Position numbers: made by a program
Part shown: piece after piece, positions 18,001 to 21,000 of the stretch
Position numbering within the stretch: position 1 is the stretch's first letter
Layout of the letters: the number at the start of each line of letters is the position of its first letter
Assembly: GCF_000027125.1 (NCBI RefSeq)
Contig: NC_017626.1
Direction: 5' to 3' (one strand)
DNA: 64,000 nucleotides
Source of the DNA: Escherichia coli 042
Lineage (GTDB): Bacteria; Pseudomonadota; Gammaproteobacteria; Enterobacterales; Enterobacteriaceae

Positions 18001-21000
18001 TAGAAATAGATGAAGATCGACTCCCCTCCCGGGCGATGGCAATTCATGAGCATATCCGCCAGGATGGTGAAAAAGAGCTGGAACGCGACGCAATGGCGCT
18101 ACTGTGGTCAGCCATTGCGGCGGGTCTGTCGATGGGCGCTTCGCTACTGGCAAAAGGGATATTTCATGTCGAACTGGAAGGCGTGCCGGGCAGCTTCTTG
18201 CTGGAGAATCTCGGTTATACCTTTGGTTTTATTATCGTCATTATGGCCCGCCAGCAATTATTTACCGAAAACACCGTGACTGCGGTACTACCCGTCATGC
18301 AAAAACCGACAATGAGCAACGTTGGCTTACTTATGCGGTTATGGGGCGTCGTGCTGCTGGGTAATATTCTCGGGACAGGTATTGCGGCGTGGGCATTTGA
18401 ATATATGCCAATCTTCAATGAAGAAACTCGCGATGCATTTGTCAAAATCGGCATGGATGTGATGAAGAACACCCCCAGCGAGATGTTTGCCAACGCGATC
18501 ATTTCCGGCTGGCTGATCGCCACTATGGTATGGATGTTTCCTGCAGCGGGTGAGGCAAAGATTGTGGTGATTATATTGATGACCTGGCTTATTGCCCTGG
18601 GTGACACCACTCACATCGTTGTCGGTTCTGTTGAAATCCTCTATCTGGTGTTTAACGGTACGCTGCACTGGAGCGATTTCATCTGGCCCTTCGCACTACC
18701 TACTTTAGCGGGGAACATCTGCGGCGGCACCTTTATCTTCGCGTTAATGAGTCATGCACAGATCCGCAACGACATGAGCAACAAGCGCAAAGCAGAAGCA
18801 CGCCAAAAAGCAGAACGTGCGGAAAACATTAAGAAAAATGATAAAAACCCGGCATAAATGGCGAGGGTTTAAGCAATCGAGCGGCAGCGTACTTACCCCG
18901 CAGTCCATTAGCGGGTATACTCATGCCGCATTGTCCTCTTAGTTAAATGGATATAACGAGCCCCTCCTAAGGGCTAATTGCAGGTTCGATTCCTGCAGGG
19001 GACACCATTTATCATCCCCCTCGCAATAACCCACTTACAATCAGTGAGTTATCTTAAAATCCTTAGTATAGTCAACCAGTACTTCGATATGTGAACGCAA
19101 ATCATCATGCATTCGTGAACTTAACTGGAAACCTCCCCCATTCGATGTCAAAATGACTACCCCAATAAGTTGCCAATAATCAGGCTAATCAATACGGGTC
19201 AGTCTTGCTGGTCAGTGATCATAAAAATGTCACCTCATATTAGACTCAGCAAATAATTGTGTCGATTAAACATACTACCTTCAGCATAACCGTTCCTGAA
19301 AAATTATTATATTCAGTAATCTGAATAAATTACTGGCCTGCTATTTTTCTTAGCAACCATATTTAGCAGCAAGCCAGCAAATCTGAATGATTACAGATGC
19401 TGGCCTGCTGAATCTCCCTTCTGGAAATCGTCAGAATCTAGTGATTACTTACTTTGTTCTGGTTTCTCTTCATTCTTATTGTGCACTTCCACTTTGGGTA
19501 ATTTATTAAAAACCAGATTTTCTTTTTCAACCAGAGTCATGACTTCTTTGGTGATATCAGCTGACTCGTTATGCGCAAGCACAACACCTGAAGACAATAC
19601 GGCAATATTTTTAGGATTGTCTTTTCTCCATGTGCCTATGGCATTATCTATCGCACGGGATAACACCATTTTTGCGCTATTTTCCTCAATAACATATTGT
19701 CGTTCCAGTTTTTGTCTGGCATCAAGAAGCAGCGCCTCTTTATTCGCGTTATCTGCGAATGTTTTTTGCGCATCCTCATATCCTTTTTCAAGAATACTCT
19801 TAACCTCATTCAGATGCTTTTTGGCCATGTCTCCGGCGGTAGACTGATTATAAATAGCATCGATATTAACAACTGCAATTTCTTTTGACTTTTTCATATA
19901 AAAAACACCAGTAAGTACAATCAGCAACAGCAGCACTACTGCATTAACAACAGAAAATTTCATTACAGAACTCATTATGACAACCCTGAGGTGGCAGGAG
20001 GTCCCCTCCTGCCACTGTGTGATTAGAATATATATTTAATACCCAGCATTGCCTGGGCATCACTGTACCCTTTATCGCCAGCCTGAACACCAACATTGCC
20101 CCAGACACTCAGGTTATCTGACAATTTACCCTGAACACCCGTTTTGACTTCAGCAATATTTGTAGCTCCGTCCTGACTGAGTGCCGTATTATCCATTTTG
20201 ACACCCCAGCTCCGTGTATTATGGATCCAGTTAACTTCCACAAATGGCTCAAACTGATGCGCCTTATTATCATCAGACGCACTCTTACCTTTCAGGTAAG
20301 TTCTGACGCCCAGACGACTCTGGATATTACCGTCTCCGCTGAGCTGAACTTTCGTGCCATTCTTCTCCGTATGCTCACTGGCTCTTACATTCATCCACGT
20401 GATCTGGGACTGCGGCTGAATATACCAGTCATAGTGGCTACCCTGGCTACCGATAAATTCGCCGGCTTTAAAGGTATAACCCGCTTCCACTGAACCGGTA
20501 AATCCACGGGATTTCCAGGACTCCGCAGCCAGTTTTTCACCATTAACGGTATTATTAAACCATCCGTACTGGATCCAGGTATCGACATAAGCCCCGTTGT
20601 CATTACCGTCATTCTGCTGCCACGTTCCGTATAAACCGGTGCTGTATCCATTGATCGCACCTTTAGATTTATATCCCGAAAGCGAGGATGTCGTGGAACT
20701 CTTCTCATTTCCATAACCGGCCATAATCCCCAGTTGCAGACGGTCCTGACCGTCAGTCCATTGCGCAATGCTGCCACCCAGTTGCACAACATAACGGTTA
20801 CTTTGCGTATTCAGCTGTGAACTGCTGTCCTTCCAGCGATTATGACCGCCGATATGACGCATCCACATACTTGTTGCTTTCTTCTCACCAGTAAACACAT
20901 CGGTATAGTAAGTTTCCCCCTCACGATCGTGCATTCTGATGTTGAACAGCGTGTTGGCTGCCGCTATGTTCGCAATATAAGAGCCCGCTTCCGGACGATA

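Follow-up and report, generated by a model that had tools for sequence, protein, structure and literature searches.

The 64,000-nucleotide stretch of Escherichia coli 042 DNA analyzed here (contig NC_017626.1, hereafter the window) carries on its minus strand, at 19445..19975, an open reading frame (ORF) that runs from ATG to TAA and encodes a 176-residue protein of the Skp/OmpH type. The ORF starts 47 nt past the stop codon of upaE, the gene of a phase-variable autotransporter adhesin of uropathogenic E. coli, which lies on the same strand and is present in the window as a remnant. A first-pass annotation of the sequence had described the small protein as a Skp paralog held in the membrane by its N-terminus and perhaps acting as a holdase for the neighboring autotransporter. 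We examined the gene, its product, and its relatives, and here describe the Skp-like protein as a predicted inner-membrane-tethered member of a subfamily linked to type V secretion genes.

The ORF is a real gene under purifying selection and not a chance frame. The dN/dS ratios against orthologues were 0.135 for Salmonella diarizonae, 0.325 for comparison locus L002, 0.379 for an E. coli plasmid, and 0.376 for strain CFT073. Identical DNA is annotated in RefSeq under WP_000100045-type entries as "OmpH family outer membrane protein" or, in some records, as "membrane protein" or "hypothetical protein". Among 5426 complete E. coli genomes, 252 (4.6%) carry the ORF, 248 of them together with the adjacent 3' end of upaE. 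An exhaustive HMMER search placed the relatives of the protein in 163 clusters at 50% identity. In the intact locus (L001; also CFT073 and L020) the gene order is dsdC, ipuB, ipuA, the LuxR-type regulator gene ipuR, upaE, the Skp-like gene, a tRNA-Arg gene (argW), yfdC, mlaA, and fadL. The tRNA-Arg (CCT) gene was identified in the window by ARAGORN at 18933..19007 on the plus strand, downstream of the Skp-like gene, where it marks the island boundary in the same arrangement as in L001 and CFT073. The Skp-like gene is thus an accessory gene on the argW island and not the core gene of the bamA-skp-lpxD-fabZ cluster.

The upaE remnant occupies 20023..26168 (minus strand) and, by blastn against the intact L001 gene and by annotation, comprises the 3' 6146 of 7914 nt. 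Its open frame, at 20023-26133, has 2036 codons, corresponding to the 3' 78% of upaE, and is 98.4% identical in DNA to L001. Missing from the remnant are the first 1768 nt, and with them the start codon and the signal peptide with its extended signal peptide region (ESPR), which was found in the intact gene. Similarity to the intact upaE locus ends at 26168 and is followed directly by a 768-bp IS1 at 26169..26936 (minus strand), recognized from the breakpoint, its terminal repeats, its ORFs, and the annotation of matching sequences, whose insA/insB genes are oriented as upaE and the Skp-like gene. The element joins truncated upaE to truncated oxc, which is followed by frc (flanks 26937-29767). 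The truncation of the partner gene by IS1, already noted in the first-pass annotation, is borne out by this junction. Missing from the window relative to the intact locus are the upaE 5' end, ipuR, ipuA, ipuB, and dsdC, and, by K-12 gene order, presumably also dsdXA, emrKY, evgAS, yfdE, and yfdV; on that gene order, roughly 20 kb would have been lost through a deletion mediated by IS1. Since the Skp-like ORF is 100% identical in DNA to that of strains carrying full upaE, the upaE deletion looks recent. The upaE::IS1::oxc junction was not found in any complete E. coli genome of the collection.

Assignment of the protein to a family required its relatives. The single query matched Pfam OmpH weakly, with a sub-threshold E value of 0.0041; an NCBIfam scan of the same query returned only noise (RseP and SctR at E of about 0.01, far below the cut-offs), and a PDB search with the single sequence found no Skp. 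Among 109 aligned relatives (alignment A1), 69 reached E<=1e-3 against the Pfam OmpH profile, and the number rose to 99 at E<=0.1. The family profile searched against the PDB matched the OmpH-like proteins 4kqt (4e-6), 9yju, and 9nhx (the latter two at about 3e-5) as well as E. coli Skp (1sg2, 0.0046). Judged by these profiles, the query belongs to the Skp/OmpH family (Pfam PF03938) transitively, by way of its relatives. A match of the query to Pfam DUF1993 (E 0.0013) was dismissed as a helical-bundle match that was seen in just 2 of the 109 relatives; apart from OmpH and DUF1993, the query matched no Pfam family.

A single-chain AlphaFold2 (AF2) model built on alignment A1 had a mean predicted local distance difference test (pLDDT) score of 92.8, with a helix at residues 6-26, a strand at 32-36, helices at 38-44, 46-72, and 79-119, a strand at 123-128, and a final helix at 142-150. 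The Skp-fold core spans residues 32-150 (19526..19882, minus strand), and the region of helices 46-72 and 79-119 corresponds to the "tentacle" hairpin of Skp. When the model was compared to the PDB with Foldseek, the top ten matches were all to Skp (1sg2/1u2m), SkpA of the type 9 secretion system (8gl8), and the Caulobacter OmpH-like protein (4kqt). The first nine had probabilities of 0.99-1.00, and the match following this group dropped to 0.03. Matches in AFDB50 were likewise annotated as Skp/OmpH, among them a 97%-identical E. coli entry automatically named "Chaperone protein Skp". We regard the assignment of a Skp fold to the 176-residue protein, made on the predicted model, as solid. Both the model and the family profile thereby place the protein, for which the first reading had noted Skp-like helical segments, with Skp/OmpH; the structure and profile comparison proposed at that time as a possible refutation came out in favor of the relationship.

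The family also has features of its own. An extension of about 25 residues at the C-terminus begins where profile matches to solved Skp/OmpH chains stop, at about position 148-150. It contains a family-specific motif, F-x-x-L-P-x-V, at residues 156-162 (19490..19510, minus strand), in which F156, L159, P160, and V162 are nearly invariant in alignment A2 and P160 nearly so in A1 too. The pLDDT is still 98 over residues 151-160. Elsewhere in the protein, His54, Gln93, Glu97, and Trp116 are invariant or nearly so in A2, and D140-x-T142 is nearly invariant in A1.

The N-terminal stretch quoted in the first-pass annotation corresponds to residues 7-25, FSVVNAVVLLLLIVLTGVF. The hydrophobic run extends over 20 residues, F7 to Y26 (FSVVNAVVLLLLIVLTGVFY; 19898..19957, minus strand), and is predicted by AF2 to be one continuous helix, which we interpret as an uncleaved transmembrane (TM) helix from the model, the insertion energy, conservation, and the aligned orthologues. 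It is joined to the first beta strand by a short, Lys-rich juxtamembrane linker, MKKSK, at residues 27-31 (19883..19897, minus strand). On the Hessa scale, the best 19-residue insertion energy was about -1.6 kcal/mol, whereas the signal peptide of E. coli Skp gave +6.2. The query has neither a polar c-region nor an Ala-x-Ala site. Its sole candidate cleavage site is L-T-G23|V, at which the -3 residue is Leu in the query, Phe in three of the five nearest orthologues, and Val in relative P0027; Phe at this position is disfavored by signal peptidase I (SPase I). The helix ends in an aromatic residue followed by Lys residues (V-F-Y-M-K-K-S-K), as do the helices of other TM-type relatives, and Asn11 is kept in five of six clade members. 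Residues 1-27 are conserved at 59-81%, compared to 67-80% for the mature part, as would be expected of a segment that is kept rather than discarded.

The strongest argument for an anchor comes from the family context, which also argues for a periplasmic location of the domain. A lipobox was found in at least 72-77 of 138 full-length relatives, with Asp at +2 in 30 of 77 (39%), and the enterobacterial clade A4 has Cys-Asp in 11 of 13 members. In Enterobacterales, to which the +2 rule is confined, Asp at +2 is a signal for Lol avoidance and retention in the inner membrane. In a rough neighbor-joining tree, TM-type N-termini arose four or five separate times, twice inside lipobox-Asp clades. Because of these lipobox-Asp relatives and the repeated origins of TM-type N-termini, tethering to the inner membrane, whether by lipid anchor or by helix, appears to be the selected state. 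The suggestion that the N-terminal stretch is an uncleaved anchor is therefore retained as a prediction that we consider likely, in view of the absent Ala-x-Ala site, the prevalence of Phe at -3 in the orthologues, and the mostly lipoprotein character of the relatives.

Of the 21 neighborhoods of family members that we then read, 19 were informative, and in 13 of these the Skp-like gene adjoins a type V gene. Homologues thus lie mostly beside type V genes, and the test named in the first-pass annotation, a standard cleaved signal peptide with homologues scattered at unrelated loci, did not refute the idea. Besides the E. coli upaE locus with its 47-nt spacing, the linked cases include Salmonella diarizonae, in which an integrase gene, a LuxR-type regulator gene, the gene for a 2632-residue autotransporter, and the Skp-like gene follow one another; L002, with a UpaE orthologue and 57-nt spacing; and the P1-like IncY phage-plasmid pAPEC201602 of E. 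coli (L018:795-10543), with a UpaE-like autotransporter gene that is frameshifted in the record and a Skp-like gene product of 75% identity. The L018 cassette is preceded by PapI/PapB-family regulators instead of the ipuA/ipuB invertases and the LuxR-type ipuR, so that the same cassette is found under a different regulatory system. On Yersinia ruckeri plasmids, the Skp-like gene stands once behind a PATR/AC_1 autotransporter gene (25 nt) and once, in degraded form, behind the gene for a serine protease autotransporter of Enterobacteriaceae (SPATE). Others follow a 2318-residue ESPR autotransporter (L016) or, at 10-nt spacing, a 2092-residue protein with BigA_beta and Autotransporter domains (L014). 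Linked members were also found in Cedecea (L021) and Citrobacter (L023/L024), and in Buttiauxella, where the gene is divergent from that of an ESPR and PATR autotransporter of >3120 residues. In L028 (730-8791), the gene follows a 586-residue BigA-type autotransporter remnant that lacks a signal peptide and lies beside MarT-/FidL-like regulators and phoPQ, an arrangement that recalls the marT-fidL-misL layout of Salmonella pathogenicity island 3.

One further linked cluster involves a trimeric autotransporter. In E. coli GCA_047758895.1 (L011:5621-10576; also L012 and L013), the gene for a trimeric autotransporter with ESPR and YadA head, stalk, and anchor is followed by that for a TpgA-like protein with BamE and OmpA domains and then by that for a TM-anchored Skp-like protein, so that one adhesin has two different putative helpers stacked behind it. 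This paralogue was not found among complete E. coli genomes. All linked members belong to TM or lipobox-Asp clades, and most partner autotransporters carry an ESPR. The partners represent several type V classes unrelated to one another, and the linkage can thus not be put down simply to repeated inheritance of a single locus. A search of species-representative genomes with the close-clade alignment A3 found no related loci; alignment A5 did recover such loci. We also observed that L023, deposited as "Chryseobacterium sp. 18061", shares its ORF layout and ORF end sequences with L024 (Citrobacter sp. 18056), and that L026, from the same assembly as L023, encodes a family member as well; the sameness of L023 and L024 makes the public record for the "Chryseobacterium" assembly look contaminated or mislabeled.

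The 47-nt spacer between upaE and the Skp-like gene contains an 11-bp GC-rich hairpin without a U-tract, GTGGCAGGAGG-GGA-CCTCCTGCCAC, at 19991..20015 (minus strand), with a computed RNA folding energy of -24.3 kcal/mol. Hairpins of like strength and near-identical sequence lie at the same place in Salmonella (L006:9750-9798) and on the E. coli plasmid (L018:9953-10013), and comparable hairpins of unrelated sequence were found in the spacers of L002 (L002:5687-5745) and L016 (L016:8959-9001). A hairpin also precedes the Skp-like gene of the trimeric autotransporter cluster (L011:9920-10000), and none is present where the spacers are 10-25 nt. Just 15-25 nt separate hairpin and start codon, leaving no room for a promoter, and transcription of the Skp-like gene therefore probably continues from that of the autotransporter gene. 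The hairpin may serve as an attenuator that tunes the ratio of adhesin to helper, or it may protect and stabilize the upstream message.

Expression of the gene in strain 042 itself had been proposed to come from IS1 read-out or from a promoter of its own. A promoter scan around the Skp-like gene returned 5 sites compared to 4.0 expected by chance, and thus no evidence of its own promoter. A terminator-like match within the span of the gene but on its opposite strand was set aside. The IS1 genes face the upaE remnant, and read-out is geometrically possible, but it would have to cross 6.1 kb of untranslated pseudogene. With the 5' end of upaE and the ipuS promoter region lost to the IS1 event, the gene, although intact, is here probably an idle orphan with neither client nor normal transcription.

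Taken together, we propose that the Skp-like protein is an inner-membrane-tethered, Skp-fold holdase that would be co-expressed with a very large autotransporter, the usual form in the subfamily being an Asp+2 lipoprotein beside type V genes; we put the probability of this reading at roughly 0.55. The small beta-sheet body, which lies five residues from the predicted uncleaved TM helix (residues 7-26), would be kept by that helix on the periplasmic side of the inner membrane, and the shortened helical hairpin would be the client-binding arm. The body lies 9-10 residues from the lipid-anchored Cys in lipoprotein relatives, and these short distances suggest that it would sit at the membrane surface by the Sec exit. 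Skp binds autotransporters and meets nascent outer membrane proteins at the inner membrane. Current opinion is that ESPR signal peptides keep autotransporters tethered to the inner membrane for longer (PMC8151025). The co-expressed holdase, which would presumably form a trimer with its bodies and arms on the periplasmic side, could meet the very large autotransporter, here UpaE of about 271 kDa with its slowly processed ESPR signal, as it leaves the Sec translocon. It would then bind the autotransporter and keep it unfolded and non-aggregated until handover to the beta-barrel assembly machinery (BAM) or to TAM (translocation and assembly module). Such a helper might raise yield or limit envelope stress and would not be strictly required.

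Several observations weigh against this proposal. With respect to the anchor, the query does have a weak SPase I site, Leu-Thr-Gly23|Val, at which relative P0029 has Ala-Gly-Ala, and some relatives with clear Ala-x-Ala sites reach insertion energies of about -1.4 kcal/mol as well. Hydrophobicity alone can therefore not separate anchor from signal peptide, and the anchor call depends on the missing c-region, the conservation, and the family context. We regard cleavage of the N-terminal stretch as doubtful. A soluble, dedicated Skp paralogue, whose long Sec signal peptide would be cut by SPase I after Gly23 (VLTG|VFY) and which would still serve the neighboring autotransporter, is unlikely. It gains from the small residue, Gly or Ser, found at the candidate -1 position in all six clade members, from the Ala at -3 in P0029, and from the many distant relatives that are SPase I types, and it is countered by the Phe at -3 in most of the closest orthologues, the lack of a polar c-region, the helix predicted to be continuous through the site, the conservation of Asn11 and of the whole N-terminal region at the level of the mature protein, and the inner-membrane-type lipoproteins that make up the surrounding clades. 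Considered by itself, the Lys cluster that follows the helix also agrees poorly with the positive-inside rule: a single Lys precedes the helix, and Lys-Lys-Ser-Lys directly follows it. Positive charges just past an export signal hinder Sec export. An inverted topology, in which the N-terminus is periplasmic and the Skp-like domain is cytoplasmic, perhaps acting in a SecB-like manner on the pre-secretory autotransporter, would accommodate this charge distribution. The homologous domain follows a lipobox or a cleavable signal peptide in most relatives, however, and hence is extracytoplasmic there, and the structural relatives are all periplasmic chaperones, so we consider an inverted topology highly improbable.

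The tie to the autotransporter can also be questioned. The periplasmic domain is near neutral, with an isoelectric point (pI) of 7.05 and a net charge of 0. The Skp-like protein has diverged faster than its partner: identities of 46, 63, and 75% were found in L002 (L002:3-6287), L006 (L006:1852-10337), and L018 relative to the window (19445-26133), compared to 86, 86, and 91% for the autotransporter, and this faster divergence suggests weak constraint. A recombination breakpoint at the gene boundary was considered as the cause of the L002 difference (86% versus 46%) and rejected, since DNA similarity runs into the gene and fades within it, at about window position 19686; in L002 the divergence is likewise greater in the beta-domain (72%) than in the passenger. 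K-12 lacks the Skp-like gene. UpaE produced in K-12 from pUpaE, built with a reverse primer that reaches no further than the stop codon of upaE, nevertheless had its full length, was exposed at the surface, and functioned in biofilm formation and binding of extracellular matrix (PMC6083910). Since UpaE alone works in K-12, any role of the Skp-like protein would be auxiliary and not obligatory. Finally, 6 of the 19 neighborhoods lack a type V gene. These are the site of P0029, those of two SPase-I-type members in Desulfovibrio-like surroundings, a dnaX-apt site, and those of second copies in Cedecea and Citrobacter, with topB and resistance-nodulation-division (RND) pump neighborhoods among these contexts. 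Together with dN/dS values of up to 0.38, these points could favor a Skp-like envelope protein without a specific tie to UpaE, whether it buffers envelope stress in general or is the product of an island gene that hitchhikes, with linkage that reflects co-mobilization; many linked loci do lie on plasmids or islands and some include degraded autotransporters. We nonetheless think that such a protein, too, is an improbable explanation, as the linkage recurs in several genera with unrelated type V classes (AIDA/UpaE-type, SPATE, BigA-type, and trimeric YadA-type), usually on the same strand at 10-60 nt with no room for a separate promoter, and we roughly estimate the chance that the immediate neighbor of a random gene is a type V gene at well under 1%.

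Elsewhere in the window, a 351-residue Asn/Asp/Ile-rich ORF lies between fadL and mlaA at 15428-16483 (plus strand). Its counterpart in the intact comparison locus encodes a hypothetical protein of about 415 residues, indicating that the ORF at this position varies in length among strains.

In most descriptions, autotransporters depend on nothing beyond general periplasmic chaperones (Skp, SurA, DegP) and BAM/TAM. Should the tethered holdase we propose exist, it would be a client-linked holdase at the Sec exit for classical, SPATE, BigA-type, and trimeric autotransporters, and the ESPR signal extension, whose function has long been debated, would gain a concrete partner. A third gene behind ipuR-upaE would bear on the biology of uropathogenic E. 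coli, and such a helper could aid the heterologous surface display of very large passengers. For E. coli 042 the consequence is modest, the gene being an intact leftover beside an IS1-truncated upaE; the greater interest lies with the family.

The homology to Skp/OmpH is already known in the form of database annotation in RefSeq and UniProt. What is new is the predicted subfamily, an enterobacterial, inner-membrane-tethered, and type V-linked branch of Skp/OmpH that is undescribed in the literature we searched. Our full-text searches, whose coverage was incomplete and which took in a Skp review and a type V review, found no description of autotransporter-linked Skp-like proteins. The study of UpaE treats ipuR-upaE as a two-gene operon and does not mention the Skp-like gene (PMC6083910). 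A 2021 review of type V folding names only SadB and TpgA as co-transcribed helpers (PMC8151025), and a 2026 preprint on genes beside trimeric autotransporters, which has no mention of such Skp-like proteins, considers it unlikely that further helper proteins await discovery. As a tentative extension of the above, the Skp-like proteins might constitute a third dedicated class of type V helper beside SadB and TpgA, consisting of Skp-fold trimers tethered by an Asp+2 lipid or a TM helix, which would catch ESPR-delayed giants of types Va and Vc at the Sec exit, with the spacer hairpin setting the stoichiometry.

Skp itself (OmpH, HlpA; 1SG2, 1U2M; PF03938) is a soluble trimeric periplasmic holdase and shares with the Skp-like protein the same extracytoplasmic fold, a beta-sheet body with a long alpha-helical hairpin, at 16-21% sequence identity. 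Skp has a cleaved signal peptide, whereas the Skp-like protein has a predicted uncleaved TM helix. The hairpin of the Skp-like protein is about 20 residues shorter, with 91 residues between the strands IAVVN and IAVL compared to about 110 in Skp, as counted from the sequences. Skp is basic, with a computed pI of 9.52 and a net charge of +5, in contrast to the neutral mature domain of the Skp-like protein, and it lacks the F-x-x-L-P-x-V tail. The genes also differ in their setting, skp standing in the bamA-skp-lpxD cluster and the Skp-like gene beside an autotransporter gene on the argW island.

The closest functional parallels are the known helpers of type V adhesins. SadB (PMC3953254) is an inner-membrane trimeric lipoprotein co-transcribed with the ESPR-carrying trimeric autotransporter SadA of Salmonella, and it corresponds to the role proposed here in being a small, inner-membrane-tethered helper beside an ESPR type V adhesin that improves display and is not absolutely required. 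The two proteins are unrelated in fold and sequence, SadB was not among the PDB fold matches of the Skp-like model, and SadB serves type Vc only, whereas the Skp-like family is found beside both types Va and Vc. TpgA (PMC12523085), a periplasmic protein whose gene is co-transcribed with that of the trimeric autotransporter AtaA, is likewise an accessory protein of a type V adhesin, but it combines a BamE-like domain with OmpA_C, binds peptidoglycan and the outer-membrane anchor, and has no Skp fold. A Skp fold dedicated to one secretion system, and not to general outer membrane protein traffic, is found in SkpA of the Flavobacterium type 9 translocon (8GL8; PMC10994853), the third-ranked structural match of our model. 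SkpA belongs to another phylum and another secretion system, is only 10-11% identical to the Skp-like protein, and has its binding site at the outer-membrane translocon, with no tether to the inner membrane.

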